This document shows positions 26,259 to 53,063 of a stretch of DNA of 64,000 nucleotides, piece after piece. This DNA is from a virus. The position numbers and the translations under genes are program-made. The first letter of the stretch is position 1. Each line of letters starts with the position of its first letter. The stretch lies in IMG/VR virus record IMGVR_UViG_3300035698_006717, positions 32,001 through 96,000 of that record; one strand, 5' to 3'. The notes under the pieces were generated by a model. That model saw nothing but the letters and a program-made list of their open reading frames with translations. It was not told where the DNA came from and searched no databases.

Positions 26259-28136
26259 ACTTCTATACCCTTAAAGAGAGGAGCCTACTATGGCTTGGAA
26301 TCCTAGTAAGAAGAAGTGGGAAAGAGATCCAGAACTTCCTGCCCGTAATACCCTTAAGTGGATAGGGCTTACGAGTGAAGAGAAATATGACGTTAATCTT
26401 CAGTTGGGTCATAGCTGGGGATTCCAGAACGTAATACGTGACGTAGAGAACGCCCCGAATGTTGCTATTGAGAAATACTGTGGAGCCTTTCGTATGGGAT
26501 TTGGGAAGAAGATAACTATTGATCCTGTTATCCGTAACGCTCTAAGAAAAGAGTTGATGAAGCGTTGCCGTGAAGGAATCTATATCTTTGCCTCTCGTAA
26601 TGAGAAAAGAAAGCTGAGACCTGTAGCTCGTATGCATGATGGAGCACCGACTGGTAAACTCGTTAAAGAATCTGCCTGATGGCAACAGGGGGGATTGGGT
26701 GCTTATTGAAGCATCGGAATCCCCCCGTATTATTTGAAGGAGGGTTAATGCTATTCTGGTATTTTTGCGCGGCTCGCAACTCTGAACCTTGTTATACTGA
26801 ATTAGATTCAGATGATGATCTAGATTTCAATTACAGAACTGGTGGTGATGGATTCTTTACTGTTGATATTTATGTGGGATATTGAAAGGATAGTGCTGTG
26901 AAGATTCAAGATCTAGAGAACGGAATGGTATCCATGACTAGGGTTAGCCCTATTGATGGGAAAGAGAATACCATGATTATTGTATTGGATATGATCAGCT
27001 TTATGGCCTCGCATGCTATATGGGTAGGAGGTACGGATGTGCAAGGTGCTTTCCCTACCCTATCTGCAGATGAGCGTGAATTCATACGTATTGGCATCAC
27101 ACCTGATCAGTCTAAGGAGATGTATGAAGATGAAGAAGTTTAAAGTTAATGGAGAATGCTTTTGCGAGGGAGGGACTTATGAGGCTCGTTCTCCTATGGA
27201 GGCTATGTACAAGCATCTCAAAGATGAGAAGAATATAAGTTTGGAGTGTTTCATGGAACCTATATTTAGTGGTAATGTAAAATTAACCACTATAATAGAT
27301 GGAATAACTGTTTGCGGCGGTTATGAGATAAGGGAGATGAAGTAATGAAAATAGTATCTCCCAAAACAAAAGTAGAATACATAGTAAGATGGCAGAAATT
27401 CGGATGGGTAGGATCTGCTATCAATGTGTATGTTAAGAAGAAGCTATTTAGTAAGATACCTTACAAGAAGCGTGTATGGCAGATATTTGGAGAAACTTTC
27501 TATGATATGGAAAGGATGTTCCCTGACAAGCTAACAGAACTATTCCATAAAGCCATGAATGAATATGAAGAGTATGTAGAGGCTTGGAATAATTCATTAA
27601 ACAAAGGAGATTGAATGCTGACACCAAAAGACTATCTGACCGCTCTTGATGTTCAAGATGCTTGTAATCTTTCAGGCGTTGTCCTCTCATTTATGGGAGC
27701 TTTGGACAAGATTAGAGAGGAAGTGAAGGATACAGATAAGATCAATAAGCATCCTATATGCGTTCTATATTCTGACAAGATTGCTCACCTAACAGGAACT
27801 CAATCTTATGCTGTTACTGCTGTAAGTGAAGCATATCAGGCCTGTCACGATAGGAGTCCTGAATGAAAGGATACAAAGTATTTGACTATGTACTACCTGT
27901 TTGGTCAATCTGTCCTCTAGTAAATGCTGATACATCTTCAACTACTGATGAGGATGATAAGAAGCTTGATAAGTTTCAGGAATGCCTTAATGTCAATATG
28001 GAAACTCTGGAGGCCAAATCTTGGACAATAGATTGGCCAGATTCTGTTGATTCTGCCAAGTACTTTTCTACATATAATGAAGTTGATGGCTATCTTGGAG
28101 CAGACGTTGTTGGTGTAAAGATCTACTTTTTCTATT

Positions 28137-29387: not shown

Positions 29388-30785
29388 AGCTGATTATGGA
29401 ACTGCCGAAGAATGTTTGCGCATCGCTGGCTGATAAGAAGCTAATAGTTGATGAGACTAAGAAACTTCTTGCTTATGCGCATGTTGCTGATGATAACCTT
29501 ACTTGGCGCTTCCTAGCGGAGATGTTGGAGAATTCCTGCCGAGCTAATGCTGTTATTCAACTAGATTATTCCGAAGATGGTAGAGAAGGAAATAAGACTT
29601 GGTATATTATAGAAGGGATGGGGATGGGTGAGAAGTTCCTCTATATTGACTGTTCTAAGGCTGATACTCCTAATTGGGAATATTCTTGGAGTGCTATCTA
29701 TGATTTGAGAGATGAGAACTGATTATGATCTCAAATTGGAAGTGGAATTTAGTAATGAGATGTATGGGTACGTGGATGGATTGGTATAGAATAGGGTATG
29801 GTGAATGGTTGGGGGGAGAGCTGGTTACTCTTCCCCCGTTTTTACATGAAAGTATTTATCATGGATGTTATGACTGCTCCCTTGGAAGAACTACAAGCGT
29901 ATGTTGACTTCTTACATGAGGAGTGGGTAGATGATCTATTCTATTCAATATATGATGTAGTTGCTGAAGAACGCAACCGTGTTGAATCTATCATAGAGTT
30001 GAGATCTAACCCCTGAAAGGATTTATCATGGAATTCAGAGGATTAACCAAACAGATGATCATCCCTATCGCTAGGCGGGAGGCTAATTTGTGTAACGCTT
30101 GGTGGATACTAAGAAACGCTCAGAAAGCTAATAATCCTGAAATTACTGCTCAAATGAAAGCTATGGCTAAAGACTTCATAGCTAGAAAGGACACGTGAAT
30201 GGCTCTGTCAAAGATGGATAAGAAGGTACTTGCTGATATGTATAATTCTCTAAGAGCAACTATAATGGCTTGCGCTTCAGAAAGTATTGCTTGTGTCAGG
30301 TAAGCTGATGCTTGTGATAGTGTTGTACATGATAACATTAAGATATGGATGGACAAAGATGACTAAAATTCAGATAGTCCCAAGAATAGGTGATATTGTT
30401 ATAGTCAATTACAAATATATGGTAGCTGATCAAGAGTCTAGTCAGTTTGTTGATTATATATTCAAGCACGTTGCTTTTGCTGGCGCTATTTCTTCATGGA
30501 GGTACTGCTCTACTAAGCCAAGCCTAAGTAGTGTTGTTGTTACATTTGGTACTGTTCAATTTAATTTCTCCGTCATCGAGCTTATTTGGACAGGACTCAA
30601 TATAGGATCTGAAAATCCTCATTATGTTGAAGTAAACTACCTATAATCTTCAAACTCCTAGGAAGCCCGTAGAGCTTAGACAAGATCTAACCCTATCCTA
30701 GTACGCCTAAACCCCTTTCAAGACCGTAGCGAGCCGCCTAGGAGCTTGTAATAGGCTTGTAGGTATAGAACCGAACCCGTAAAAG

Positions 30786-30846: not shown

Positions 30847-32926
30847 ATGAAAGATGGCTAGGATTTTTTGGGACGCCATAGTAGGTGAAGTATTCTTACC
30901 CTTGTGGTATCGGATATTTTGTAGAACAGTTTGTAAGATTTTTAGTCACAAACCTATGCGTAGCTTCCCTCCTGATTCAAATAGTAGTAATTGTATTGAT
31001 ACCTATTGTGAACGATGTGGCAAGTATTTGAACTAACCCCTAGGAGAAGATGAAATGAATAAGCAGGAAGTGAAAGATAAGCTGTTGTACTTTGTTCGTC
31101 AGTACGGAAGACGTATTTCCTTGCCAGGTATATATAGTGATGCCTCTGGTATAGGTTCTTTGAGGACTGAAGGTTGTTCTTGTTGTGCTACTTCCTTTAG
31201 GTATTCAAAACACGATTGTGATGAAAATGACGCTGCAGATGAAATAATTCAATCCTTTACCATGGATGAACAAATAGAAATTGTTAAGGAGAGCTTGAAA
31301 GCAACTATCAAAGAGTACGGCCTTACCCCTTCTGACTTGGAGTAATACCCTAATAACCCTTGAAAGGTGTTAAAATGATTAGATACACTATAAAGCAAGT
31401 AGTTATGTAGCTGTAACAAACCTTATTTATGAACAGCTACGGTGTACACCAGCTGATCTAACAAAAATTCAAAAGAAATTGCTTATAGCTTGTAATAACA
31501 TGCTAGAACTACTCAGAACAATAAAAAAGGAGGTAGAATCAAAATGAGCAAAAATGATAATGAAGAGTGGACAACAGAAAAAGCTCTCAAGGCTTTTGCT
31601 AGCCATAGGTTTAGAGGCATTAATGTAAAAACAAAAGAAAGTATGAGGAGCATTTTGGATAAACTCAATCTAACAAAAGATCAATTGAAGAAACTCAACC
31701 TACTAGAAAAATCAATTCTCAAATGGGAGCAAAATCAACTTATAGCTTCAGAGATGTCAACATTCACAGATCCAGAGAACTACCCACTCCTAAAGGGACA
31801 ATTCATTATAGAAGCAGATACTTGCCCTCTATGCGTAGAATACAATATTGGCTTAACAAATAATAAGATATGCTTAGAGTGCCCTATCTATCAGATGAAC
31901 AGTAACCATAGAGTGTGTAGAGGTACACCTTATATGACGGTAAGCAGATTCATGCTATCTCCAATTCCCAATTGGGAAGGTGTACATTCCGCTTCAAAAG
32001 CAGAGGTAGTCTTTCTTAATCGAGTTAAGAAAGAACTCATACTATCCTATGAATCACCTCCCCACGTAAGGAATAGCAAGAATACCCCTATTACGTTATA
32101 TAACAGTAATTGCGTACCAGTGTTGTCCTTAGATTGTGATGAAGAGAATGAATCTATGGTAGAAGTAAGAGATGTTAAGGATGGTATGATAATAGGTGAG
32201 TTAGAGGTTGATATGTGTTCTACTGAATACTTAGATTGCATAGACAATATACTACCCTCAGACTCAGAGTTTGCACAGATTAAGGATTGGGACAAAGCAA
32301 TTGAGAAGGAAAAGAAGCAATTATTGACTTTCTCTCTAATAGCCCCAAACCTTTGGACTGACACCGATACTGAAAGGTTCTCTATCTATGCTTTTGAGAA
32401 GACTAATGGTAAGACAGGAGTCAAGTATATGGCTTATAATATATTTGATAATGAAGAGCAGAAGGTGATAGGTAAGGACTCTAAGTTGTATACATTTACT
32501 GCTGCTGCTGAGTATGTTAATAACAAGAAGTGGTAGATGTACTACTATCTTGCTACTATGTGGTATACTAGGGAGTAGTGAACATCACTTAGGCATTTTG
32601 ACTACTGTGTGGTATGATACTATTATACTATTATGTGATTTATGATTGATTTAATACATGCTTATGCCACATCATGATCAGTCATGATCAAAGCATGCTT
32701 TCCACCGCATATTCACGCCATTCATGATATCTACCTGATATATTCAGACTAATCAAAATTTCAGCTTCATGATATCTACAGTGTTATTTGCAAATAATCA
32801 TTAAAATCACATCATTGAGAAAATTCATTGGTTAGTCATAGTCATTGAATAGCAAAAATCATTGAAGATGTACATTCAGTGATTAGCAAAAGTCAATGAC
32901 CTTGCCAACTCAAGGATTATCTTTCT

Positions 32927-32962
32927 AAAGTCATAATATATCAAGACTGAATAGTATACCTT
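32927..32962 (+). promoter_or_regulatory. conserved phage promoter P8 (divergent copy)
   Basis: AAAGTCA-TAATAT-17bp-TACCTT. Confidence 0.6.
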
Positions 32963-33007: not shown

Positions 33008-33370
33008 ATGAACCATCTGTTGTTAGAAAAAGCTATTAAGGATTTGGCGGTAAAGCCTCTAGGTAAGTTCTCTGAAACTGAGGAAATGTTTAAGCGCTCC
33101 GGCTCTATAGGAGCTATTGCACTTGCACCCTACCTAAAAGGGGATAATGAATACTATGCTGACGAGGGAGACGAAGGCTTCTTGATGGAATGGGTTGAAA
33201 TGTTTGATAAGCTAGAACCTCTAGCGGGTGCGGTTGAATTTACGGATACTGTTTCTGGTTGTGACGTAAATGTTAAGTGTTTCTTTGGAACTATACTTGT
33301 TAAGTGGATAAATGAGGTAGGGGGAGTTTCCCTATCTGTTTTTGATATAGAAGCGTATATGGTTTTGTAG
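33008..33370 (+). CDS. acidic hypothetical protein, paralog of 34005-34361
   Basis: Shared LG.FS...MF, P.LKGD.EY, AG.V.F.DT.SGC.V.VKCF.G.ILV.W.N. Confidence 0.8.
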   Translation: MNHLLLEKAIKDLAVKPLGKFSETEEMFKRSGSIGAIALAPYLKGDNEYYADEGDEGFLMEWVEMFDKLEPLAGAVEFTDTVSGCDVNVKCFFGTILVKWINEVGGVSLSVFDIEAYMVL

Positions 33371-33444: not shown

Positions 33445-33780
33445 ATGAAAGGTTCTACTGTTTATGAAAGCCTAGAAGATCTAGTGAAGGTACTAGGTGA
33501 TAGTAAAGATTGCAAATACTTGTTAGAAGATATAAAGGAACGGCTTGAAAAGGCTTTGGGAGAAAGAAAACCTTATAGCGTATCTTGGGTAAGTACTGAA
33601 ACTGATTATGCTACTGCTACCGCTATGAGCTTGTTAGTCGATAGCAGAGAGGGTGATACTTGGGTAAGCGAAGAAGGTGAAGAATTCTATAAGCTGATTA
33701 ATGCGGTTGATGAAACTCTAATCGTTATAGAGATGAATATTCCTGGTATGAGTGATTACCTTCTAGTGACGTATATTTAA
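33445..33780 (+). CDS. acidic hypothetical protein
   Basis: AGGAGG RBS; own promoter and a downstream hairpin (33794-33809). Confidence 0.75.
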   Translation: MKGSTVYESLEDLVKVLGDSKDCKYLLEDIKERLEKALGERKPYSVSWVSTETDYATATAMSLLVDSREGDTWVSEEGEEFYKLINAVDETLIVIEMNIPGMSDYLLVTYI

Positions 33781-33875
33781 AGGAGATCTGATCAGGGGGC
33801 TTGCCCCCTTTCCCATTAACCAGCAAAAGTCAATGACCTGAGGAAAATTCAATGGCACAAATTCAACCCAGAAAT

Positions 33876-33924
33876 TCAATGATCAAAACTCAATGATCAA
33901 AACTCAATCGTCAAAACTCAATGA
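33876..33924. repeat. 14-bp tandem repeat TCAATGATCAAAAC (3.5 copies)
   Basis: Copies at 33876, 33890, 33904 (variant) and 33918 (partial). Confidence 0.85.
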
Positions 33925-34004
33925 CGAGTATTATATAGACAGGGCTAATCAAGCTTGATTAGAGTATATTACCCTTATACCCTAACCCCTCTAGGAGGCA
34001 GAAG

Positions 34005-34361
34005 ATGAGACAGCACGCGTTGGCTAGTGAGATTAAGAAAGCGGCGGGAGGTAAAGCACTAGGTGAGTTCTCCCTAGCGAACCATATGTTTGATACTTCG
34101 GACGTAGTAGTAGCAAAGGCTTTGACCCCCTTCCTTAAGGGAGATGACGAGTATTTCGTTAGCGACGATGAGGAGGCTTGGAAAGATGATTACCTGATTA
34201 GCTTTATTGATATAATCCCTACGGCGGGAGAGGTACGGTTTGACGATACTGACTCTGGTTGCTCCGTACACGTTAAGTGCTTCTACGGACTAATCCTAGT
34301 ACGTTGGACTAATAGCGCAGGGGCTGATTCTATCTCTGCTTTTGATATACCTGAGTTATAG
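34005..34361 (+). CDS. acidic hypothetical protein, paralog of 33008-33370
   Basis: See paralog; AGGAGG RBS; hairpin GGCTCTCCT/AGGAGAGCC downstream. Confidence 0.8.
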   Translation: MRQHALASEIKKAAGGKALGEFSLANHMFDTSDVVVAKALTPFLKGDDEYFVSDDEEAWKDDYLISFIDIIPTAGEVRFDDTDSGCSVHVKCFYGLILVRWTNSAGADSISAFDIPEL

Positions 34362-34419
34362 AAAGGATCTGAATTTGGCTCTCCTACCCTAAGGAGAGCC
34401 TTCATTTTACATACCATAC

Positions 34420-34790
34420 GTCATTGGTTTGTACTGTATATGTAAGGACATATGGTAAGCCAATGAGTTGTTCTGTATATGTAATGACATATGTTAGAGC
34501 AGGTGATAGAGCATATGGTAAACCAATGACTATGTAATGTATGTAATAGCATATGGTAAGACAAGTGATAGGACATATGTAAAGAGCAAATGGTATGTGT
34601 GTGATACCAATGTACTGTACTGTAAATGTAAGGACATATGGTAAACCAATGACCTGCTATATGTGTGTGTAATAGCATATGGTAGGACAAATGTAAGTTC
34701 AAATGATATGCTATACATTGAGCTGTTATATGTAAATGTAATAGCAAATGTAAGGACATATGGTAAACCAATGACTATGTAATGGAATGT
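34420..34790. repeat. non-coding degenerate CATATG-core repeat array
   Basis: CATATG at 34449, 34488, 34512, 34550, 34574, 34635, 34676, 34757; unit CATATGGTAAACCAATGAC x3 plus one variant. Confidence 0.9.
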
Positions 34791-35516
34791 TAAACAAATT
34801 GTTAAACAAATGTTGTGAAATGTTAAACCAGTGAAATAAATGTAAAATGTTTACCAAGTTGATATCTACCATATACCATTGGCTAGTTGATTTTATTTGA
34901 AACTGATATCCTTGTTGCTGCTGTGATTAGCTTGATTTCACAATACACTGATTTCTTTTGGCTTTTCCCCGTTTTGCCATGATTTGGTAATTCAATGACT
35001 TTCTCGGATTTCCGAAAAAAAGCGGAAAAATCCGAATTTACCCTAAATCGGGCGAATTACCCGAAGTCGGTATAAATACCCGAAAGCGGGTAGAAGGTAC
35101 TATTTAAGGGGCTTAAATAGGGGCCGTTTAAGGGTTAAATACGTTTAGAGCCTAGGAAGGTTATTTAAGCGGATTAAGGGAAAACTAATTAACCGTATTA
35201 GGTAAATCTTCTAAGTCCTTTAAAATAGGGTAGTTACGGAGGGCGGGCTTTTAGGCGGATTCTATTTAAACGGTTAAAAAGATAGTTTAAGGTTTTTAAA
35301 CTAGATAGAGATTCTAGTTTAAATCGCTGAAGGCGAATTAAATAAAACGTCTTTTTTAGTACTATTAAGACGTTTTTTAAGGCGACTGCTCGCGAGCAAA
35401 TCTACTTAAGATATTAAGTTTTCCCCGATAGGGGCTTTAATCGAGTATATTTACTATAACGCCGCTACCCGCTACGGGCTACGGCGATAATCTATTACCC
35501 TTATAGGGGGTTTCTT

Positions 35517-35786
35517 ATGGTCTCGAATTCACTTACTCTAATAGCTTCGGTGACGAACGATCTACCTACTATATATAGGGTCGCTACGGTTAACCCCTTC
35601 GCCGCCCTACTACCTATCGCCGCCATAGTCGCCGCCGTATACCTTATAGCTTTAACGGTCTACGTGGCGAACGACTACGCCGTTAATACTAATTTACTAA
35701 GAATAGAAAGAGAGGAGCCTATAACCTTAAGAAAGAGCTTTATAGTCGAATACAATAACGGAACTAATAAAACCGTAAACGCTTAG
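35517..35786 (+). CDS. small membrane protein
   Basis: Hydrophobic segment AALLPIAAIVAAVYLIALTVYV; GGGGG RBS. Confidence 0.6.
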   Translation: MVSNSLTLIASVTNDLPTIYRVATVNPFAALLPIAAIVAAVYLIALTVYVANDYAVNTNLLRIEREEPITLRKSFIVEYNNGTNKTVNA

Positions 35787-35841
35787 TCTATTACTTCGAA
35801 TTCACCAAATTTTTAAACCGTAAAAGAAAAGAGTTACTACT

Positions 35842-36369
35842 ATGACTACGAAAAAGAATACTACCGCCGCTCCCGTTTCTAAGATCGTTCGCCACGCCGC
35901 CGCCGCTCCCGTAGAGACTCCCGCCGCCGCTACCGTAGAGAAGGTTTCGCTACTATCGGAAAAGGATTTTATTTCTTACGCCGAAAAGAGCGGGACTCCC
36001 GCCCTAAAATCTTTCGGAAACGTAGGGAGTCGAGTATACGCGAATCCTACCTTTTCGGGAACTACGGCCTTTATTATAGCGGCTCTTTCTACCGTCGATA
36101 CCAAACGTACTAGTTTTACGGTCGCCGATTTCGATTCGGGTATACGGTCGATGAAAACGAAGGAGAACTGGGAACGACTCGACGCTATTTTTAATACGTT
36201 CCGTTCCCGTTTCGCGAGTAACCGTAAAGGCGAAAAACCTTCCCTCGCGAGCAAGTATAAAAGTCCCGTAAAATCTTTACGGACTAGCGGAGTATATAAA
36301 GCGTTCGACGTTTCCGCTATCGGGACTCCCGAACTAAGAAAGTCCTTCGGATTCGCGGCGGGGAAATAG
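35842..36369 (+). CDS. basic Ala/Ser/Thr/Lys-rich protein, candidate first-expressed protein
   Basis: 175 aa ORF with no Gln or Cys; followed by a strong terminator. Confidence 0.75.
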   Translation: MTTKKNTTAAPVSKIVRHAAAAPVETPAAATVEKVSLLSEKDFISYAEKSGTPALKSFGNVGSRVYANPTFSGTTAFIIAALSTVDTKRTSFTVADFDSGIRSMKTKENWERLDAIFNTFRSRFASNRKGEKPSLASKYKSPVKSLRTSGVYKAFDVSAIGTPELRKSFGFAAGK

Positions 36370-36398
36370 ATCGTTCGCCACCAATAGGCGGATAATAT

Positions 36399-36426
36399 AG
36401 GGTAGTCTTCGGACTACCCTTTTTTT
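36399..36426 (+). terminator. rho-independent terminator
   Basis: AGGGTAGTC-TTCG-GACTACCCT followed by a T run. Confidence 0.92.
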
Positions 36427-36599
36427 ATACCTTCCCCGCTCCCTTCCTTCCTTCGTTCGTTCGCCAGACTCCCTCCCTTCCTATAATACCCTAAATCGCC
36501 GCTACGGGACTTTCGCCCTCATAGGTATAGCTAGGATAGGGTATATCTTCCCCGCCTTATACGGGCCTTCTACGGGCCTTATATAAGCTATTTAGAATA

Positions 36600-36706
36600 T
36601 ACCTTAAATCGGGTAGAATACCCGAATTTATATAGTCGGGCTTTTTACCCGAAGTCGGGTAGAATACCTTATCGGGTAAAATACCCGAAGTAGGGTAATA
36701 TACCCT
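36600..36706. repeat. cluster of TACCCGA/TCGGGTA palindromic repeats (second cluster at 35038-35095)
   Basis: TACCCGAA at 36619, 36646, 36682; TCGGGTA at 36609, 36655, 36672. Confidence 0.85.
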
Positions 36707-36989
36707 AATAATTTAAGCGCTTAAGGGGTAGGGCGTATGCGAACGATTTTATTTTCTAGGTAGCCCTACTTTGGCACCCAGCACACACCGTGAACATTTT
36801 TGCCAAGATTACCATGCTCAGAATATTTCAGGCAATACTACAAATGAAAAAGCCCACATACCGAAGCATGCAGGCTGAAAAATATTTACAGAAATTTTTT
36901 CTGCTGAATTTACAATATATACTTCTTGGAATCATCCTTATAGAAAATGGATATAGTTACATCTAGATAGAATTTCATCGCCCAACTCC

Positions 36990-39843: not shown

Positions 39844-39928
39844 GCACACAACGTCTGTCGTGTTACGAAGTCGCCCTTGGCGATTTGGGCCGAACGACGT
39901 GAGCCGTAACATTTCTCTTTTGTTCCGC
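39844..39928 (-). mobile_element. degenerate attC-like site 3
   Basis: R'-like GTTGTGTGC; inner TGTTACG/CGTAACA and TCGCC/GGCGA stems; weak R''. Confidence 0.45.
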
Positions 39929-40945
39929 CTTATCAGGATAAGTCTTTTGGTTCTTCACAATAGATTTGGTTTGTACCCGTCTATTCTTTACTAAAATTCT
40001 AAAATACGGGCACTTTCCATTGATTGATAGATCCTTTTCATCATTCCCTTTTCTGAACTTAACTATTTCAAATTGCTTTGGATTGAACTTATGGAGAAAT
40101 GTTATTGGCACACCTATAAACCCTTTGTAGTCTGATGGTATATCCTTTGTCTTATTAACATTTATACCATCATAGTTGTCATACTTGGGATATTGAGCTT
40201 CATTTCCGTAGTATCTTTTGGTGAGTGGAATATCTTCGTGCCGTTTAAACGTATCTAAGTTAGTCAACCATAGACAATTGTTTGGAGAAACGATTCTGTT
40301 CCCAAAACTATCTATCCGAGCTTCTGTTCCATAAAGTTCATAGTGTTCGGGAACAATAAAACCAGAGACCCCTCTACCAATGTTTATTCCTAACCATGCT
40401 TTGTTTTCTTTTATAAGCTTGAAATCTTCCTTATAAGTTATTGCATTGATATTCCCAATTATCAAGAACTTTTTATGGTACTTGACCAATTGAGCTACGT
40501 ATTCTCTGAATAATGAAAATGGAGGGTTAGTAACTACAATGTCAGACTGTTTCAGTAGTTCAATGCTTTCTGAACAACGGAAGTCACCATCCCCAGCAAA
40601 GTGAATAATGTCGGTTGAGCTTGGTTTGCTTCTTTCACCCTCCGTACCAGTATATTCAAAGTAGAAACCATTTTCATCTTCCGCGGTGTTAAACAAATCT
40701 CTTACTTGTTCCCTGTAACAAGCCGCTATCAATTTCTTGAGACCTAATTCCTCAAAGTTTGAAGCAAAGTAACTATAAAAGTTACTAATTTGAGGGTCAT
40801 CGCAATTGCAAAAGACCACCTTGTCTTTAAAGTGGCTCTTATAATGCTTCAATTCACTTTCTATATCTGAAAGTTGCGTGTAGAACTCATCGCTTTTTGA
40901 TTTCTTAGCTTTTTGTAATAATCTGTTTGTTGCTTTCCTTGTCAT
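39863..40945 (-). CDS. adenine-specific DNA methyltransferase, EcoRI methylase family (orphan)
   Basis: KSDEFYT, VFCNCDDP, GDGDFR, IVVTNPPFSLFREY, IGNINAITYKE. Confidence 0.9.
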   Translation of the reverse strand: MTRKATNRLLQKAKKSKSDEFYTQLSDIESELKHYKSHFKDKVVFCNCDDPQISNFYSYFASNFEELGLKKLIAACYREQVRDLFNTAEDENGFYFEYTGTEGERSKPSSTDIIHFAGDGDFRCSESIELLKQSDIVVTNPPFSLFREYVAQLVKYHKKFLIIGNINAITYKEDFKLIKENKAWLGINIGRGVSGFIVPEHYELYGTEARIDSFGNRIVSPNNCLWLTNLDTFKRHEDIPLTKRYYGNEAQYPKYDNYDGINVNKTKDIPSDYKGFIGVPITFLHKFNPKQFEIVKFRKGNDEKDLSINGKCPYFRILVKNRRVQTKSIVKNQKTYPDKAEQKRNVTAHVVRPKSPRATS

Positions 40946-44279: not shown

Positions 44280-44834
44280 CTATTCGTGCCACATCAGTTC
44301 AGAGTTTTTCTCAAGCTCTATGTGATAAGGGCCAATCTTATCAAAGTCCTTCTGGCACCATTTTATTCCATCAAGTGCGCTCTCATATCGTACAAATTCT
44401 GAGCAATAGTATTTATGAGGCTTATCCTTACATATATTATAGAACTCTAGTAGTCCTGCAACATCATATTCAAATCCAACGCAGTCAACCTTCACTCTAT
44501 TATTAGACCGTTCTCTTAACTTCTGATGGTCATATTCTGGGAACCTTTTAACAGCAACTATACGTGGCTTGTTCCATTTACGTGTGGTATACTTATCAAA
44601 GAGGACAATCCTTCCAGATGGCCATTTTAGCTCTGCAATCATCCACTTGCCATTCACCTTGACTATGAACCCAGCATGAGTAGATATTGCTCTATTAAAC
44701 ATATTCTTCCAACCAGCAGTTGCGTGACGCTTAAGAGTTTCCCAGCTGATAGGAAATCTACTAGCCGTCAGAACTATATCCATTTCCCTCATATTATATG
44801 CTTCAGGTACAAACGCTCTTTTTTTCTTTCTCAT
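44280..44834 (-). CDS. permuted papain-like amidase (YaeF/YiiX-like)
   Basis: THAG near the N-terminus, YD, and YYCSEFV near the C-terminus. Confidence 0.75.
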   Translation of the reverse strand: MRKKKRAFVPEAYNMREMDIVLTASRFPISWETLKRHATAGWKNMFNRAISTHAGFIVKVNGKWMIAELKWPSGRIVLFDKYTTRKWNKPRIVAVKRFPEYDHQKLRERSNNRVKVDCVGFEYDVAGLLEFYNICKDKPHKYYCSEFVRYESALDGIKWCQKDFDKIGPYHIELEKNSELMWHE

Positions 44835-44835
44835 A

Positions 44836-45513
44836 TCACTCTCCTATGAAGTCTCTAGCATATACAGATTTGTGAGCATGCACACCGTCCTCAGTACCTA
44901 TATGCTGAACATATGAAGGCATAGTACAGTACATACTCCAATTTTGACTCCTAGCTTGCTTGCTCATGGTATACTCCCAACCACTTGGTTCGTGTAAAGT
45001 CTCTATGCAATCTCTACAGAATTCCCTAGTGATTAGACAACCAAATATCCCAATACTTAATTTCTTCAGTACACGGATAGTCCCTTCATTATTAAGATTG
45101 ATAGATTTAGATGCTTTGTGACCTTTATAATTGTATACTGATATTGCTCCAAGAAATTTATCCATAGCCTTAGATCTGTTGTACCTATCAATCAATACAT
45201 TATACCATTCGCTATTAAATATCATATCAGAATTTAGATTGATAACGCCTTCTAAGTTTTTATGGATACTAAACATCTGAGCAAGAGAGTTCCTAGTTCT
45301 GCTTGAGCAGTTAGACCTAACTTGCATATTCATCTCAGCAGGAGGTATCTTCAGCTTAGATAGAATTTCCATTAGCTTAGTCTTATCATCAGATCCGTCA
45401 TCAAATATGTACAAAGGTGGTAAGTTAGTAGATTTGTTTAGAGAGTCTATTGTCCTTTCTAATAGATCAAATCTATTACAAGTTATCAGTATTGCTGCAA
45501 AAGAAGGAGTCAT
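44836..45513 (-). CDS. glycosyltransferase, family 2-like
   Basis: ITCNRFDLL, FDDGS, NSDM, VQHIG. Confidence 0.8.
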   Translation of the reverse strand: MTPSFAAILITCNRFDLLERTIDSLNKSTNLPPLYIFDDGSDDKTKLMEILSKLKIPPAEMNMQVRSNCSSRTRNSLAQMFSIHKNLEGVINLNSDMIFNSEWYNVLIDRYNRSKAMDKFLGAISVYNYKGHKASKSINLNNEGTIRVLKKLSIGIFGCLITREFCRDCIETLHEPSGWEYTMSKQARSQNWSMYCTMPSYVQHIGTEDGVHAHKSVYARDFIGE

Positions 45514-46334
45514 AACATCCCCAACATGTCTTTAATGTTTCTGATTACCACAGATACCTGCGGCTGCCAATTACAATCATCTAATACCCTACACTTAGTC
45601 CCAAATGGATTCCAAGATTTTTCATAGCGGTGTTTGTTGTTTCCTTTTGCTCCACCCCATCTTCTGCTGTCAGTCCATACTAAATGTTTAGTTCCGCATA
45701 AACTGGCAAGATGCATAGGGCCGCTACTTGGGCCTATGACAAGCCTAGAACTAGCCATCATATCTGTTATAGTCTCCAAAGGCTTTCCCAAAAAGTTATC
45801 AGTATGAGGTATCCATACTGCATTCTTCTGAGTACCTATGCAAGCCATCTTTAACTTGCTCTTGAAGTATTCTGTAACTTCGTTCCATTTGGCTATAGGC
45901 CAATCTCTGTTCTGCGTCTTACGCTTATTGCAACTTCTTGCGTGTATTATTAGATCATACTTATCCTTCTTAGATTTGATTCCAAGTTTAAGGAAGTTCT
46001 GATCTTCATGCCTCATAGCAGTAGTCTCTTTAGTAGGTCTGAACCATATTAGCTTACAACCTTTGTATTTATCTTGTATAAGTTTCCATTCTCTTTCTGA
46101 AAATCTTGGATCACCTAATCCTCTAGTCATCCAACATTCGCAATTCTTATCATACTTAGAAGGAATAATCTCATCGGTAAAATCTTTGAATAGTAGTTCA
46201 GTACCAGGCAAAGTGGCAACAACTACTTTGTGATACTTATTGCTAGATGCTTCCATCCTACAACGTGCGTGGTACCTCATTAAGAGCCAACCGAACTCTC
46301 CTACCCAAGGCCCACATAGGAGTACTTTCTTCAT
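45510..46334 (-). CDS. glycosyltransferase, GT9 (heptosyltransferase)-like
   Basis: GEFGW, RDWP, IGPSSGPMHLASLCG. Confidence 0.75.
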   Translation of the reverse strand: MKKVLLCGPWVGEFGWLLMRYHARCRMEASSNKYHKVVVATLPGTELLFKDFTDEIIPSKYDKNCECWMTRGLGDPRFSEREWKLIQDKYKGCKLIWFRPTKETTAMRHEDQNFLKLGIKSKKDKYDLIIHARSCNKRKTQNRDWPIAKWNEVTEYFKSKLKMACIGTQKNAVWIPHTDNFLGKPLETITDMMASSRLVIGPSSGPMHLASLCGTKHLVWTDSRRWGGAKGNNKHRYEKSWNPFGTKCRVLDDCNWQPQVSVVIRNIKDMLGML

Positions 46335-47318
46335 CTAACTGTTTCTCCATTTCTTAACAGTTTCAATAGCATTTACAATACCTTTGGCTGCAACTTCCAA
46401 AGACAAGTTCTCTAGATAGTATTCTCTAGGTGAAAAACTATCTATATTGTTAAGCATATAATCTACTGCATCCCATAAAGTATCCTCAGTTGCTATTATG
46501 CCAGTTTTATCATTAATGTACTTTTCAGTCCAAAATCTTACGCTATCTAAAACAACTATAGGTAGATTACAAGCTAACATTTCAGGTATAACTCTAGGAC
46601 AACTATCTACAGAGGCTCTAGAACACACGATACCACACTTGCATTTAGAGTACTCCTTAGCTATATCTTTCCGTAGAACGCGGTGACATACCACATTTGT
46701 CGGCTTCTTACAGGGTGATACGTTACCTAAGTTAAGTATATTAAGCCTACAACGTGCTGTAGAGTACACAAGCTCGTGTCCTTTTATCTTGTATTGGCTT
46801 CCGTTGGCAGGAAAGCATACGTCATATACCTTCTCGCGCTCATAGGGAACCATAATATTATCAGGAGCTGGCTTTATGAATAAGATTGCAGGAATATCTG
46901 GGAATAACTGTTTGCAATTAGTAACCTGAGAAACAGAATCTTGTAGTATCAAGTCATAATCTGTAAATCCTTTTTGAGGCAGATACCTCTTACCTGCTCC
47001 ATAGTAAACCTTGAAAGCATCTGGGAACCTCTTGAGAATTTTGTGGTATTCTGAGAAGCCGCCTCTACAGAATATAACATCTGGAGTAAAGTTCAAAGAC
47101 CATTGCTTGAAATCTGGTACTCTAATTTCTGCAAAGTTATTTTTAAATTCATGATACCGATCACCTCCCCAATATGCTACAACTCCAGCATCTTTTGGGC
47201 CAACCATAGAATACAGAAGTTGAGTCCAAACATCATCACAATCTTCAACTTGGCTGAATATAGTTTCAGATGGATTCCTATCTGTAGGGTGCTTACCTCT
47301 AAGCATTAAATAAATCAT
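46335..47318 (-). CDS. GT-B (GT4-like) glycosyltransferase
   Basis: KGH, DSCPRVIPEMLACNLPIV. Confidence 0.75.
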   Translation of the reverse strand: MIYLMLRGKHPTDRNPSETIFSQVEDCDDVWTQLLYSMVGPKDAGVVAYWGGDRYHEFKNNFAEIRVPDFKQWSLNFTPDVIFCRGGFSEYHKILKRFPDAFKVYYGAGKRYLPQKGFTDYDLILQDSVSQVTNCKQLFPDIPAILFIKPAPDNIMVPYEREKVYDVCFPANGSQYKIKGHELVYSTARCRLNILNLGNVSPCKKPTNVVCHRVLRKDIAKEYSKCKCGIVCSRASVDSCPRVIPEMLACNLPIVVLDSVRFWTEKYINDKTGIIATEDTLWDAVDYMLNNIDSFSPREYYLENLSLEVAAKGIVNAIETVKKWRNS

Positions 47319-48057
47319 GGTTCCCTCTTATCCTTGACTCAACAAGTGCTATATCTTCAACAACATCTACTGCGTGAGAATTAGTGTGCACTGGTAACAT
47401 GTACACCTTATACCCATTTTCCAAAGGTCTTAACATACAAATATCTTCTGCCTTCTCTATATAGCCTTTTTCACAGTCTCTGAATAGATCAATAATTGCC
47501 GCTCTCTTGAATACATAAACGCACACCTGCTTAAGAGGATTGCTATACACATTATTTCTATTATATGGTAACGGAGTCCTGCTCATATATATGAGTTCAT
47601 TTATATGGTTGACTAATACATGTATGCAATTAGATGTACGGAAATACATATCATCTTTAACTGTAGTGTAACAATTCAGCAAGTGATAACTATTCCTTAT
47701 TTCTTTGAAGGACATAATAGCATACTCTATAAGAGAAGTCTCAAGTATAGGTTCGTCACCTTGAACATTTACAATTATCTCCTCATCTAATTGCAATGCA
47801 GCTTCTGCTACTGCTTCATTACCAGTAGTGTTATTACCAGTAGTCATTCTTGCTTCAACTCCACGCTCTCCCCAAAACCTTTCAACGTGAGATACTATCT
47901 CTGAATTAGGAGTAGCAACATACACATTAGTATCTTTTACTTTCAAGCAGTTCTCTATTACCATATCAATCATCATTTTACCATTTATAGCTGCAAATGG
48001 TTTCCTAGGGAAACGCTTGCTTTCTAACTGAGCTGGAATTACAATTGCAGTATCCAT
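47299..48057 (-). CDS. kdsB: CMP-ulosonate (CMP-Kdo-type) cytidylyltransferase
   Basis: IPAQLESKRFPRKP, IVNVQGDEP, AVDVVEDI. Confidence 0.85.
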   Translation of the reverse strand: MDTAIVIPAQLESKRFPRKPFAAINGKMMIDMVIENCLKVKDTNVYVATPNSEIVSHVERFWGERGVEARMTTGNNTTGNEAVAEAALQLDEEIIVNVQGDEPILETSLIEYAIMSFKEIRNSYHLLNCYTTVKDDMYFRTSNCIHVLVNHINELIYMSRTPLPYNRNNVYSNPLKQVCVYVFKRAAIIDLFRDCEKGYIEKAEDICMLRPLENGYKVYMLPVHTNSHAVDVVEDIALVESRIRGNHDLFNA

Positions 48058-49025
48058 TATACCACTCTATTCTTTAAAGGGTTGTCATTAAAGAAATCTA
48101 TTAATGCTTTGGCAGCACCAGATTCCATATCTAGTCTACTCTGTTCAGTACAAGATCCAAGGTGAGGGGTAAGATAAGCATTCCCCATAGTAGCCAACTT
48201 ATCTCTGTAAGGTTCTTCCATAAATGAATCAATAGCTACTGTGGCTTTAGGGGAATCATTAAGCCACATAAATAGATCCTCTTCATTTATTATACCGCCT
48301 CTTGACATATTGAGTAGCCGTACATTATCCTTCATACTGTACAGTTCTTTTTTGGTCAGGTAATCATAATTGCTTATTATCTGATCCTCAAGAGGAATGT
48401 GAATAGTTATAACATCACATTTTGCCAGTATATCTTGCTTGCTTGCTCTTTTCCATTCTGGCATAGGATTCAGAGTCCCAGTAAATTCTAAGTCGTGAAC
48501 TAGCAAATCGCAGTCCATGCTATTTAGAATTTTGTATACTATTTTGCCAATACGCCCATAACCTATTATCCCAATTGTACAGTTCTTAAGCTCCCGCCCT
48601 ATGTATCGGTTCCACTTGTCATTACTCATATCTTCGCTGACATTCTGTACCTTACGGAGCATATTTAGCATCTGACATATAGTAAGTTCTGCAACTGCGT
48701 TAGATGGAGCCTCTGGAGTATATGCTACCACTATACCGCGCCTCTTGCACTCATCCAAATCTACAGAATCTAATCCAATACCTACTCTTGATATTATCTG
48801 TAGATTCTTACAAATATCTAAAGCCTCTATATCCCAATTTTCAGTACCTGCTATTACAGCAGCAGGGTTAGCTGACCTTAACTCTTGTAAGAATTCTTCC
48901 CTATTGTATTTACGCTTTTGGGAGTTCATCTTGAAACAAGTAATGCCGCCATCCTGCAATATCTTGATAGGCTTTTTATTTGTATGCCCAAATGGGTAGG
49001 TAGTGATAATTGTAGTAGCTATCAT
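48057..49025 (-). CDS. D-2-hydroxyacid / phosphoglycerate dehydrogenase-like
   Basis: RVGIGLDSVD, GYGRIG, NMSRGG, LTPHLGS. Confidence 0.9.
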   Translation of the reverse strand: MIATTIITTYPFGHTNKKPIKILQDGGITCFKMNSQKRKYNREEFLQELRSANPAAVIAGTENWDIEALDICKNLQIISRVGIGLDSVDLDECKRRGIVVAYTPEAPSNAVAELTICQMLNMLRKVQNVSEDMSNDKWNRYIGRELKNCTIGIIGYGRIGKIVYKILNSMDCDLLVHDLEFTGTLNPMPEWKRASKQDILAKCDVITIHIPLEDQIISNYDYLTKKELYSMKDNVRLLNMSRGGIINEEDLFMWLNDSPKATVAIDSFMEEPYRDKLATMGNAYLTPHLGSCTEQSRLDMESGAAKALIDFFNDNPLKNRVV

Positions 49026-49717
49026 GGTAGTAAGTTCTCCAATTCTCCAATTGAGTTTCTTATCATTAGTGCATCAATACTGAATGCAACAAGACCGTAC
49101 CTTCTATACTTAAGATAATACTCGTTAGTGTCTTCAACTAAATGGTATCCTCTTTTTCCTTCTGGTATTATATCAGCAAATGTTCTCATAGCTCTTCTGA
49201 ACCCTTGAGTATCAAAATCTCCTGCTTTGCCATATGATTTAGATAGGTCATATGGCCCAACCATAAAGCAGCTTATATTATCACAATTCTCTAAAGCAAC
49301 TAAGTTGTCTATTGCTATATTGCTTTCTATTTGTATCATTTGCAGAGGTTCTTTATTGCAAAGCTCCATTCTTCCCCATCTATTCTCTCTACAGTACCCA
49401 ACTCCTCTTGAAGGGTATTTACATATTCTGTTAATCTTATGTATCTGAGGCACACTATCAATATTGGCAAAAATTACTCCATCAGCTCCTGCATCTAAAC
49501 ACATCCTTACTAGCCTCTCATCTATTGTAGGAACTCTAATAATAGGAGAGCAGTCGCAACGGCTAATTATTTGTATACAGTTGAATATAGTTTCATCATT
49601 GAAGCATCCGTGTTCAAGATCAAGAACTACTCCATCATATCCAATAGCACTTGCAAGCATTTCAGAGATTAATGGAGAAGGTATTTGTTGCCAAAGAACC
49701 TTCATTTGTTTAGACAT
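49022..49717 (-). CDS. HpcH/HpaI family aldolase
   Basis: LDLEHG, RVP, LDAGADG, QIES, VGPYDLS. Confidence 0.88.
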   Translation of the reverse strand: MSKQMKVLWQQIPSPLISEMLASAIGYDGVVLDLEHGCFNDETIFNCIQIISRCDCSPIIRVPTIDERLVRMCLDAGADGVIFANIDSVPQIHKINRICKYPSRGVGYCRENRWGRMELCNKEPLQMIQIESNIAIDNLVALENCDNISCFMVGPYDLSKSYGKAGDFDTQGFRRAMRTFADIIPEGKRGYHLVEDTNEYYLKYRRYGLVAFSIDALMIRNSIGELENLLP

Positions 49718-50364
49718 AGAACACTCCCATCATAGAATTTTGAATAGATAGTTGGAGTTATAATCTTGAATTTTATTCCTGCTTTATCTATATTCTGTAA
49801 GACTCTGTATATGAAGTGATCTTTCTTCTTTTCCCAATCCATATTATCAGAATCAGTAAATCCTTCTCCATAACAATGCTGAGTACCTTCTTGAGGATTA
49901 GAATAACCATCTGCACCTATAACATATATATTCTTAGCTCCCATAAGATGAGCTATCATTATTGCCAAGTTGCCACCTATTCGGTAGAATCCTTGTATCC
50001 TATTATTCTTGTATTCTATAGGTTCATTCTTATTGTGGAAGTCATCAGTATACGGAATAGTACACTTACTATTTGATTTATCTTCAACACACTTTAGAGT
50101 ATCAGAGAATAGATGGCTTCCTAGTAGTAATGTAGAAGATGGTTGTATGCATTTGTGAAAACGCTTCAGCCTTTTATTGTTTACCCATAAATGATAATGA
50201 GGTTTATAGAAATGAGTCATCTTATTGATGCCAATAACTACTGGATTAACCTTTCTTGACATCCAATCCTTTATCTTATCATCATATAGACGTACTGAAT
50301 TAGCAGAGCCATATATTAGAAAATCTCTGCCCCTATGGTAATTAATTAGTTCTGAGAATTTCAC
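49702..50364 (-). CDS. Maf/DUF115-like putative ulosonate transferase
   Basis: IYGSANS, IGIN, AHLMGAKNIYVIGADG. Confidence 0.6.
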   Translation of the reverse strand: MKFSELINYHRGRDFLIYGSANSVRLYDDKIKDWMSRKVNPVVIGINKMTHFYKPHYHLWVNNKRLKRFHKCIQPSSTLLLGSHLFSDTLKCVEDKSNSKCTIPYTDDFHNKNEPIEYKNNRIQGFYRIGGNLAIMIAHLMGAKNIYVIGADGYSNPQEGTQHCYGEGFTDSDNMDWEKKKDHFIYRVLQNIDKAGIKFKIITPTIYSKFYDGSVLCLNK

Positions 50365-51202
50365 CTTCGCCCCATATCATATCTGTTAATTTTTTCACAT
50401 CTGGATCAAATACTATACTTCTCCAAGTTTCATCATTTTCGTATAATTTCCATCTATTCAGCACATCCATTTCCTGAGCATTACCATCAAATTGTTTACC
50501 ATTAAAGCTACTACCTATTCCATAATTAGGAATTTTATTCAAACCTCTATCAGTATGCTTTAGGCCAAGCATATTGGATATTGCTTTTCTGGATGATTCA
50601 CTACGGAACCAATTATTAAAGTCTATGCAAACAGAATACTCAGGCAAACTATCCTCATAACCTAAATAGCTGTTATAATATTGCTTCAGCAGTCTTTTAT
50701 ATTTACCATTCACAATCTGACTGTGTACATAGTTCAGCCTACTAGCTGTCATATTATATGGATCACGGATAGGAAGAACAAAGCATTTTATCTTACTCTT
50801 ACCATAATTATGGTTTGCTATCCTATCCATATTATCCTTAGTAATTTCCACTTCCTCATATCTAGTTATGAGGCATTTCCTATCAGCATATGGATTAGTA
50901 TCCAAACTAAGCTGAGGCATCTTATAGTTGTATATACTATGCTCTTGTTTCTTCCTGAATATCTCAGGCTTAAGCGCAAATGTCTTAGGATCAGTATTTA
51001 GAAGATGAACCTCTCCATCTCCAAAATGATTGATAACCCAATTCATTATGGCATTACTACCGCTACGCTTCATACATAGGAAAATGAATTCATATTCATT
51101 CTCAATCTGAGATAAACGATCTCTGTTAAATGTCACATGTGACATTATACGCTCCACTTGCATATTTGTACAGGACATTCTATATTGAGAGCTATACAAC
51201 AA
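50342..51202 (-). CDS. sulfotransferase-like protein
   Basis: MKRSGSNAIMNW (5'-PSB-like) and IRDPYN..ASR (3'-PB-like); true start may be downstream. Confidence 0.65.
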   Translation of the reverse strand: MLYSSQYRMSCTNMQVERIMSHVTFNRDRLSQIENEYEFIFLCMKRSGSNAIMNWVINHFGDGEVHLLNTDPKTFALKPEIFRKKQEHSIYNYKMPQLSLDTNPYADRKCLITRYEEVEITKDNMDRIANHNYGKSKIKCFVLPIRDPYNMTASRLNYVHSQIVNGKYKRLLKQYYNSYLGYEDSLPEYSVCIDFNNWFRSESSRKAISNMLGLKHTDRGLNKIPNYGIGSSFNGKQFDGNAQEMDVLNRWKLYENDETWRSIVFDPDVKKLTDMIWGEGEILRTN

Positions 51203-51603
51203 GCTATTCTATGATGTCCTTCCCATATCTCACCACTAGCATATTTGGCAAATGGAACCAAAGGAGCCTCTAAAATAATAACAGGATTAGTAACTCCATT
51301 ATTCAGTATATCTCCATACAAAGCTCTGAATTTGTCAATCTTATCTTCAATCCACTTATGCTTCCTACCATACAGCTTCTGCATCTTATAGTATGGCCCA
51401 CTAAACCTATTCATTAGTAGAGCTACGTGAGGAGAGTATATCATTCTCAAAGGTCTTTTAACATGAGATGTTGTACAAGATAAATATGCTTGATATCTAT
51501 CGGGATTATATTGAGCACAAATATTCCTCAAGTCAGATGATTCTATAGTGCGCTCTGAAATAACTTCCAACTTAACTCTTTTGCAAAATCTATTGAAGTT
51601 CAT
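51145..51603 (-). CDS. ParB/Srx-like domain protein
   Basis: ILNNGV.NPV...EGHHRIA. Confidence 0.6.
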   Translation of the reverse strand: MNFNRFCKRVKLEVISERTIESSDLRNICAQYNPDRYQAYLSCTTSHVKRPLRMIYSPHVALLMNRFSGPYYKMQKLYGRKHKWIEDKIDKFRALYGDILNNGVTNPVIILEAPLVPFAKYASGEIWEGHHRIACCIALNIECPVQICKWSV

Positions 51604-53060: not shown

Positions 53061-53063
53061 AAC

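Follow-up and report, generated by a model that had tools for sequence, protein, structure and literature searches.

A sharply bounded island nearly free of CA and TG at the meeting point of two gene blocks in an uncultured salt-lake phage

Target avoidance by phages is known, but for sites of 4–8 bp only. The first-step-transfer (pre-early) region of phage T5 is devoid of EcoRI sites, and in phage T7 the asymmetric sites of EcoP15I, which the enzyme requires in inverse orientation, are strand-biased. At the RNA level, mRNAs that lack ACA escape MazF. MazF homologs cut U^GN (PMC13107127), and CmdT, a toxin that reads RNA at the dinucleotide level, ADP-ribosylates GA in ssRNA (PMC11618068). In Pbunavirus F8 and 14-1, roughly one T in four is a hypermodified thymidine in TG context (PMC12191111), and a TG/TC context has been inferred for M6, ViI and phiW-14 (PMC6449724).

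Here we describe an island in the DNA of an uncultured salt-lake phage where a whole dinucleotide is banned locally; we found no published description of such an island. The window, that is, the whole stretch of DNA analysed, comprises 64,000 nucleotides (positions 32,001 to 96,000 of IMG/VR record IMGVR_UViG_3300035698_006717).

The island and its elements

The initial annotation had reported about 22 CA plus TG where roughly 200 would be expected, stretches of 200–300 bp with neither, abrupt edges near 34998 and 36771, and an abundance of CG and TA unlike the rest of the window. Recounting bore out all of these. Between 34998 and 36771 (1774 bp) there are 13 CA and 9 TG, together 22 against 218 expected by base composition, which corresponds to an observed/expected ratio (o/e) of 0.10 (Poisson P ~4e-65); the remainder of the window has an o/e of 1.12. 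The longest runs without CA/TG measure 332, 218 and 209 bp in the island and at most 61 bp elsewhere in the window. The edges are sharp, the nearest CA/TG outside the island standing at 34996 on the left and 36772 on the right. A dinucleotide o/e scan, proposed in the initial annotation and run here on the window and on the whole 105,409-bp contig, showed that the island is real and single, with no second CA/TG-free island in the contig. The o/e of CG and TA is 1.75 and 1.52 in the island versus 0.46 and 0.95 in the window. We rejected this richness as an independent signal, since a maximum-entropy chain with the ban alone yields 1.79 and 1.54; the excess is thus an arithmetic result of the CA/TG ban. 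A general occurrence of CA/TG-free promoters or leaders in this genome was also rejected: gaps of at least 40 bp outside the island number 17, where a crude geometric model predicts about 53, and the long gaps found ahead of genes there reflect AT-rich leaders.

The gene-block layout confirmed that the island sits where the two transcription directions, + and −, converge. It lies mid-contig, at a distance of 25–35 kb from the replication genes. The contig ends fall within genes, IMG/VR found no end repeats for the contig, and no terminase match usable for inferring the packaging type was obtained. The elements in and around the island are as follows.

34420..34997, no strand: non-coding CA/TG-rich repeat array (CATATGG / CCAATGA type), adjoining the left edge; families D1-D9
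35005..35100, no strand: array of TACCCGA-NN-TCGGGTA palindromes at the left end, with a CGGATTT/AAATCCG hairpin; families D2, D3, D10, inverted pair I1
35386..35398, no strand: palindrome TGCTCGCGAGCA, containing two retained CA/TG
35517..35786, + strand: 89-aa ORF, small membrane protein with one hydrophobic helix; CA 3, TG 3
35550..36467, no strand: motif TCGTTCGCCAC / GTGGCGAACGA, five copies in both orientations; families D17, I7, I14, I21
35842..36369, + strand: 175-aa ORF, basic protein of an uncharacterized family
36399..36420, + strand: intrinsic terminator 3' of the 175-aa gene; fold z -5.9
36590..36712, no strand: right-end array with the same TACCCGA/TCGGGTA palindromes as the left end; fold z -5.05
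36692..36703, − strand: leader 12-mer GTATATTACCCT, identical copy directed inwards from the right end
36851..36876, − strand: terminator that closes the convergent − strand block, immediately beyond the island

The array that adjoins the left edge has a CA+TG o/e of 1.5–2.1, the maximum of the genome, and its final TCAATGA ends at 34998. Just inside the island, the left-end array folds better than shuffled sequences (z -3.1). As the initial annotation had stated, the avoidance spans both intergenic DNA and two ORFs: each ORF retains 3 CA and 3 TG, the non-coding parts are purged too, and sense-strand TG is wanting in both kinds of sequence. The five-copy motif (35550, 35663, 35882, 36368 and 36454) accounts for five of the 22 CA/TG that remain. 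A leader-like TTACCCTTATAGGG lies directly upstream of the 89-aa ORF. Searches of Rfam gave no match, and matches to the palindrome TACCCGAAGTCGGGTA in IMG/VR, on seven high-GC contigs without depletion, were dismissed as chance. Hidden − strand genes with non-NTG starts were likewise rejected, as the open frames are not conserved in L009, a related locus described below.

Relatives of the 175-aa protein and origin of the island

The 175-aa protein contains no Gln, no Cys, one His, one Trp and two Met, in agreement with the composition first noted (no Gln or Cys, a single His and Trp). Written in the usual codons of the genome, it would bring about 28 CA and 35 TG (minima of 15 and 20 in 2000 simulations), whereas 3 and 3 are observed. 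The ban acts mostly via codon choice and partly via amino-acid choice. Fourteen full-length homologs of the protein hold no His and one Cys in ~2150 aa. No assignment was found for it in Pfam, PHROG, PDB or the atlas, its predicted fold (pLDDT 75) gave no structural match above Z 4.7, and neither the island protein nor the flanking proteins had relatives in IMG/VR, GTDB genomes or cultured phages.

A scan of related loci, also suggested in the initial annotation, gave a uniform result. At all five metagenomic loci with DNA, the relatives (28–58% identity) lie in equally sharp CA/TG-free islands, whose flanks are CG-poor with normal CA/TG. The 175-aa family is thus always found inside such islands at these loci and, since the five carry diverged relatives, the ban is maintained by selection. 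L009 has the same layout, with its island at the convergence point. It also has a retained motif that shares the core CTGCTCG with the palindrome at 35386..35398, and counterparts of the tiny membrane ORF are present in the islands of L009 (ATT start) and L011. A relative of the five-copy motif, CGTGGCCACG, is retained in L012 and L013.

With its sharp edges, repeats at either end and deviating GC content and codon usage, the island might be taken for a foreign or mobile insert of alien composition or for a chimeric assembly, the latter a concern raised in the initial annotation. Logan contigs from four runs of four studies (salt-lake metagenomes) bridge the left edge with 0 differences, and the right edge is covered in three runs, in one of them by just 12 bp. 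Contig depth over the island is slightly above that of the flanks in 4/4 runs, although contig depth cannot rank parts of one stretch and is no guide to a terminal repeat or a mark. None of the runs listed for this DNA was an RNA run. The junctions thus recur in independent assemblies from four runs without mismatches, which rules out a chimera. The island avoids CCGG (0 versus 11.5 expected) as does the bulk of the genome (1 versus 68), which indicates that it is native DNA. This avoidance, together with an end repeat that matches the leader element of resident genes (see below), rules out a foreign insert. The same context recurs at L009, no integrase or transposase was found, and we know of no organism with a genome-wide CA/TG o/e of 0.1. 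Taken together, these data make an alien insert or a chimera hardly credible. Restriction-site avoidance is present in this genome, specific short palindromes being under-represented, including CCGG and many 6-bp palindromes. It is a distinct phenomenon that leaves the dinucleotide ban unexplained.

One-strand CA avoidance in neighbouring genes

Five small + strand genes upstream of the island are poor in CA on the sense strand only. They are listed here with two repeat arrays that precede them.

26290..26679, + strand: sense CA-less gene, 129 aa, basic; CA 6 (o/e 0.29), TG 33
29396..29722, + strand: sense CA-less gene, 108 aa; CA 3 (o/e 0.22), TG 35
32800-32945: repeat array similar to that at 33820..33925, upstream of gene 33008
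33008..33370, + strand: sense CA-less gene, 120 aa, paralog of 34005; CA 3 (o/e 0.22), TG 34
33445..33780, + strand: sense CA-less gene, 111 aa, no His, no Gln; CA 2 (o/e 0.15), TG 28 (1.12)
33820..33925, + strand: tandem AAAACTCAATGATC-type repeats, upstream of gene 34005
34005..34361, + strand: sense CA-poor gene, 118 aa, acidic; CA 7 (o/e 0.40), TG normal

Together these genes have 21 sense CA versus ~79 expected, with normal TG, and the minimum sense CA o/e among the other 135 crude ORF calls is 0.57. The purge starts ~40–65 nt before the ATG and ends at most ~15 nt past the stop. All three codon phases are depleted. A tRNA- or codon-level cause was rejected because the C|A codon boundary, with 2 versus 24 expected, is the most depleted phase. 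No homologs were found for the CA-less 120-aa protein. The five genes have in common a leader, GGTATA-N9-TATACCC(G/T)AACC, whose TACCCGAA core is the island end repeat. Only two exact copies of the leader 12-mer occur in the window, one at 36692..36703 and the other in the leader of gene 34005.

The purge is therefore confined to the RNA-like strand in the five genes, whereas the island lacks both CA and TG. A purge on one strand only, in all codon phases, implies an agent that reads single strands, either template DNA or RNA. These results narrow the cause to a factor that reads CA/TG and acts on single strands, during transcription or on RNA.

Candidate causes and comparison with known systems

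These observations are best explained if the island is a native and self-contained unit for early expression, with control repeats at its ends, at least one tiny membrane protein, a conserved basic protein of ~150–175 aa and a terminator, and if selection keeps it free of CA/TG so that a CA/TG-reading factor cannot act on it. Purging by selection holds because the ban is conserved in five independent loci, operates at the codon level and accompanies native CCGG avoidance. From the interpretation first offered we thus retain an early-type cassette purged by selection from a CA/TG reader. It had two specific versions, which we treat as candidates: that the island is the first DNA to enter the cell and is purged of a dinucleotide common to restriction/BREX-type targets, or that the phage modifies its own DNA at CA/TG and must leave this segment unmodified for the host RNA polymerase.

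The second version offers a possible, though tentative, identity for the factor: by analogy with TG-hypermodified phages, the cassette may dodge the phage's own thymine mark at TG. The phage would mark thymine in TG context of its virion DNA with a bulky group, and the host RNA polymerase would have to express a few immediate-early genes from the marked parental DNA. Those units would have lost template-strand TG (equal to sense-strand CA), and the central cassette would have lost TG on both strands, leaving its promoters, operators and gene bodies wholly unmarked. Such a mark fits the strand-specific pattern, because sense CA is template TG. Bulky groups in the major groove stop bacterial RNA polymerases, the block being placed at initiation (PMC4838386); on its own this does not explain purged gene bodies. 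In the bulk genome, the 11 most-avoided 6-bp palindromes all lack CA/TG, and 6-bp palindromes have a mean o/e of 0.68 without CA/TG versus 0.95 with it (p ~0.03). The site covered by the phage's EcoRI-type methylase contains no TG. We count both observations in favour of the mark. On the other hand, CATG is far below expectation in the bulk genome (o/e 0.5, z -10), a shortage that masked TG sites would not predict. A template-only rule does not explain the missing sense-strand TG in the coding regions of the island.

The gene content also bears on this mark. Across the whole genome, no ThyA-family dUMP hydroxymethylase (PF00303) was matched, while control genomes were, and only ThyX is present. 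DpdA/TGT (PF01702) and C5-methyltransferase (PF00145) are absent, with controls matched, and TET/JBP (PF12851) gave no match, but its control matched nowhere either. The only P-loop candidate for a 5-hmdU DNA kinase or amino-acid:DNA transferase adjoins ThyX, is unrelated to 14-1 gp58 and looks like an ordinary thymidylate kinase (phrog_761), in a genome where many ORFs are unannotated and for functions with no dedicated profile. When the experimentally TG-modified phages 14-1 and M6 were scanned, neither a CA/TG-free island nor CA-less genes were found: the longest CA/TG-free run in 14-1 is 85 bp, and in the early genes of M6 sense CA is only slightly reduced (o/e 0.47–0.57). To our knowledge, other hypermodified phages are transcribed by the host polymerase without such islands, which counts against the mark.

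The sense-only purge of five genes in all codon phases, from shortly before the ATG to just past the stop, is also what an agent acting on RNA would leave. A toxin deployed by the host in defence, or an enzyme of the phage for host shutoff, would cleave or modify ssRNA at CA, and the mRNAs that must be translated meanwhile, for example those of its inhibitors, would be kept CA-free. We consider this unlikely, as TG too is missing from the sense strand of the island, whether coding or not, and no conserved gene lies on its − strand. It would take a functional antisense RNA over 1–1.8 kb, or a second, UG-reading agent, and searches of the phage for RNase or toxin genes found none. A purge of both strands from promoter to terminator, with sharp edges, repeat arrays at both ends and a position at the junction of two gene blocks, a common site of phage termini, would suit an island (perhaps a terminal repeat) that enters the cell first and survives a nuclease needing CA/TG, whether of host defence or the phage's own host-DNA-degrading enzyme. 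This is quite unlikely, given that the island is mid-contig, single contigs run across both edges, no homolog of T5 pre-early genes was seen and an enzyme that cuts duplex DNA does not explain the five one-strand-purged genes. Escape from restriction or BREX in particular is disfavoured by the many restriction-type palindromes kept in the island (TCGA ten times, GAATTC twice), and a duplex-reading system does not predict one-strand CA avoidance in five neighbours. One agent could cover both patterns if a nuclease, deaminase or ADP-ribosyltransferase acted on CA exposed in ssDNA, on the non-template strand of the heavily transcribed early genes and on both strands of the island if melted (for instance at an origin or in cruciforms). 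Dense hairpin-forming palindromes at the island ends are in keeping with this, and motif-specific modifiers and nucleases of ssDNA do exist (DarT, T4 endonuclease IV). However, nothing points to the island as an origin, with the replication genes so distant, and we know of no CA-specific enzyme acting on ssDNA, so that this possibility appears very unlikely.

The ban costs the proteins encoded there four or five amino acids and is maintained across relatives that share only about 30–40% protein identity, and its one-strand variant in neighbouring genes makes the cause directly testable. Finding the agent would bring to light either a DNA hypermodification that is common but has been overlooked, and with it how a phage starts up from DNA that it has marked itself, or an immune enzyme of a new kind that is specific for a dinucleotide. 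For uncultured phages, the pattern could be used at little cost, from sequence alone, to recognise the genes that are used first, and perhaps also to detect hidden DNA modification. More broadly, we put forward as a tentative proposal that many unrelated tailed phages may carry an unmarked or unreadable immediate-early cassette defined by a local dinucleotide ban rather than by its genes. The ban would be imposed by a strand-reading, CA/TG-specific agent, either a widespread bulky TG-thymine mark on the phage's own DNA or a host immune enzyme, and the basic island protein family would let the rest of the genome be used afterwards.

Among described systems, TG-thymidine hypermodification (F8 and 14-1, PMC12191111; M6, ViI and phiW-14, PMC6449724) resembles the present case in that the mark is specific for the dinucleotide banned here, concerns about a quarter of T, where T-in-TG makes up 23% of T in this DNA, and would affect each strand by itself, which is what the sense-only genes call for. 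It differs in that no pathway gene was found here and 14-1 and M6 have no island. The T5 pre-early region is likewise a small cluster of genes that are used first, has promoters and repeat arrays of its own and is purged of a target, but it avoids a 6-bp site instead of a dinucleotide, at no amino-acid cost and with no strand-specific variant. Motif-free mRNAs that escape toxins (MazF, CmdT) share the strand-specific purge of a 2–3-nt word and thereby match the five sense-only genes, whereas in the island the purge extends to the second strand and to non-coding DNA; we know of no CA-specific toxin. T7 and EcoP15I, finally, provide a case of one-strand avoidance as a DNA-level escape, which is genome-wide and concerns one 6-bp site, while the avoidance described here is limited to certain genes and concerns a dinucleotide.

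The CA/TG-depleted island

The source contig (IMG/VR), of which the window covers bases 32001–96000, is 105,409 bp long and is rated complete by CheckV. A dinucleotide scan of 34998–36771 counted 13 CA and 9 TG, against 218 expected for this base composition, in line with the initial annotation, which had put the count at about 22 against roughly 200. The abrupt edges that it described were likewise recovered, since dense CA/TG runs up to 34996 and resumes from 36772 onward. CA/TG-free stretches inside the island measure 332, 218 and 209 bp, against at most 61 bp elsewhere in the window, and in a whole-genome scan no 200-bp window outside the island approached its depletion. A chimeric assembly does not explain these edges: both junctions occur with 0 mismatches in independently assembled contigs from salt-lake metagenomes (four runs from as many studies), the left edge being bridged by four contigs and the right edge covered by three, one of which reaches only 12 bp. 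This establishes the island as real DNA. In runs X1, X3 and X4 from the lake, a contig of greater abundance (depth 39.9 in X1) matches only 36848–36898 and 36711–36733, and its 30-nt loose end beside 36711 is also CA/TG-free; it is probably a related phage of the same lake with its own island.

Features bounding the island
34377–34400, + strand: terminator insulating the island on the left
35005–35100: left-end array of the palindrome TACCCGA-NN-TCGGGTA (folds far better than shuffles, z −3.1)
36590–36712: right-end array of the same palindrome (likewise, z −5.05)
36876–36851, − strand: terminator insulating the island on the right

The stretch enclosed by the arrays encodes a single-helix membrane protein of 89 aa and a basic protein of 175 aa and contains an intrinsic terminator; the left side of the island adjoins a 580-bp non-coding array with the highest CA/TG content of the genome. 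Two of the 22 retained dinucleotides are the ATG starts, five fall in the repeated motif TCGTTCGCCAC / GTGGCGAACGA, and the palindrome TGCTCGCGAGCA accounts for two more. CG and TA are abundant, as originally noted (observed/expected, o/e, 1.75 and 1.52), but they are not a second signal, since forbidding CA and TG alone in a maximum-entropy Markov chain of the same base composition as the island already yields 1.79 and 1.54. With genome codon usage the 175-aa protein would be encoded with about 28 CA and 35 TG (2000 trials, minima 15 and 20); 3 of each are observed. Codon choice is the main means by which the ban is enforced, and the ban extends to amino-acid content, the protein having no Gln or Cys and a single His and Trp, exactly as first counted. 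In the bulk genome, avoidance of CCGG (1 versus 68 expected) and TCGA (15 versus 54) is extreme. CCGG is also avoided in the island (0 versus 11.5), which therefore belongs to the resident genome, subject to the same pressure from the host, and is not a recent import; TCGA is not avoided there (10 versus 11.8).

Conservation with the 175-aa protein family

The 175-aa protein has no assignment in Pfam, PHROG, PDB or atlas. An exhaustive search returned 14 full-length relatives, 28–43% identical; their roughly 2150 residues include a single Cys and no His. The same scan in related phages, proposed at the outset, was applied to the DNA of five metagenomic loci, and in all five a CA/TG-free, CG-rich island surrounds the relative's gene (CA/TG o/e 0.06, 0.08, 0.26 and 0.25; locus L010 is near-identical to L009). 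Where flanks are present, they are normal in CA/TG and low in CG. Selection thus maintains the ban across deep divergence. L009 reproduces the whole layout of this phage, with small + strand early genes followed by a CA/TG-rich array and the island, whose end repeat (GTTTACTTATAA, found in either orientation) is its own and which contains a tiny membrane ORF (ATT being the only possible start), the homolog and a terminator, after which come convergent − strand genes. In locus L011 the homolog is preceded by two tiny membrane ORFs. L009 also contains identical 70-nt leaders (1314–1383 and 2281–2350) before genes starting at 1384 and 2351, a duplicated promoter-leader cassette.

Sense-strand loss of CA in five upstream genes

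A gene-by-gene scan of 142 ORFs singled out five small genes that lie upstream of the island on the + strand (26290, 29396, 33008, 33445 and 34005), whose sense strands hold 21 CA versus about 79 expected, with TG normal; every remaining ORF has a sense CA o/e of at least 0.57. CA is depleted in all three codon phases, most at the C|A codon boundary (2 versus 24), and beyond what the protein sequences alone require. The constraint therefore acts on nucleic acid, and one at the tRNA or amino-acid level is ruled out. A CA-less gene of the sense-only kind is present in L009 as well (1947–2162; CA 1, TG 23). A one-strand purge excludes a factor that reads only duplex DNA and points to an agent reading RNA or one DNA strand, either the template or the exposed non-template one. 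The five genes share the leader GGTATA-N9-TATACCC(G/T)AACC with a strong SD, and its core is the end repeat of the island. Within the window the exact 12-mer GTATATTACCCT has only two copies, one belonging to the leader of gene 34005 and the other, at 36692–36703 (− strand), pointing into the island. Two of the CA-less genes, 33008–33370 and 34005–34361, encode paralogous, very acidic proteins of 118–120 aa for which no family match was found; they may mimic DNA or serve in anti-defence.

Gene content and candidate agents of the ban

The phage is of siphovirus type and encodes DnaE, DnaB, DnaG, RecA, SbcCD, ThyX and an EcoRI-type methylase.

39863–40945, − strand: EcoRI-family adenine methyltransferase (PF13651, E 1e-128)

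No RNA polymerase, RNase or toxin was found in its genome, so early transcription is presumably by the host RNA polymerase. A cluster of about 17 kb for sugar activation and transfer (44280–60450, − strand) comprises at least nine glycosyltransferases (GT1, GT2, GT9, TOD1-like), a CMP-sugar cytidylyltransferase, a sulfotransferase, an HpcH/HpaI aldolase, a 2-hydroxyacid dehydrogenase, and FkbM and further methyltransferases; it might serve to add sugars to virion proteins or, speculatively, to DNA. Both contig ends (L014 1–1340, the genome start, and the end of L016) lie within a gene of serine-rich tandem repeats (SESASESSSVSPSAS...); this is likely an O-glycosylation substrate and probably explains the break in the assembly. 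A tRNA-Leu(UAA) at 25–106 lies within the 5' end of a FAD/NAD-binding protein ORF, beside thyX.

The initial annotation had suggested that the phage modifies its own DNA at CA/TG. In Pbunavirus F8 and 14-1 about a quarter of T is replaced by sugar-derived bases in TG context (Yee et al., PMC12191111), a TG/TC context was inferred for M6, ViI and phiW-14 (PMC6449724), and bulky major-groove groups block bacterial RNA polymerases (PMC4838386). A thymine mark at TG would produce exactly the strand rule observed, because sense CA is template TG. Weak hints agree: all 11 of the bulk genome's most-avoided 6-bp palindromes lack CA/TG (p ~0.03), and the site of the phage methylase contains no TG. Avoidance of CATG in the genome counts against such a mark, and a template-only rule does not account for the island's loss of sense-strand TG. 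No modification gene was found, profile searches of the phage genome showing hydroxymethylase, TGT and C5-methylase to be absent; a TET/JBP search gave no match, but neither did its positive control give a signal. A P-loop protein of the phage is a thymidylate-kinase look-alike.

An RNA-level agent reading CA might instead impose the ban. It accounts for the five sense-only genes, and dinucleotide specificity has precedents in CmdT, which reads GA (PMC11618068), and MazF, which recognises U^GN (PMC13107127), but it leaves the two-strand island unexplained, no conserved antisense gene having been found there. Conversely, the island might be the first DNA to enter the cell, which accounts for the island but leaves the five one-strand genes unexplained.

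A literature search found no published description of CA/TG-free cassettes. This case contributes a new lineage with a dedicated protein family, an adjacent one-strand variant of the ban, the finding that the CG/TA excess is explained by arithmetic, and negative results for two TG-marked phages, 14-1 and M6. Scanning these two revealed neither a CA/TG-free island nor CA-less genes, which also counts against the thymine mark. Since the tests did not favour that mark, we regard it as a tentative explanation of the ban, held with low confidence. In early genes of the T-hypermodified phage M6 (L019, 1232–2905), sense CA is mildly low (o/e 0.47–0.57), TG is raised and GA shows no dip; this fall in CA is far weaker than that in the CA-less genes of the present phage.
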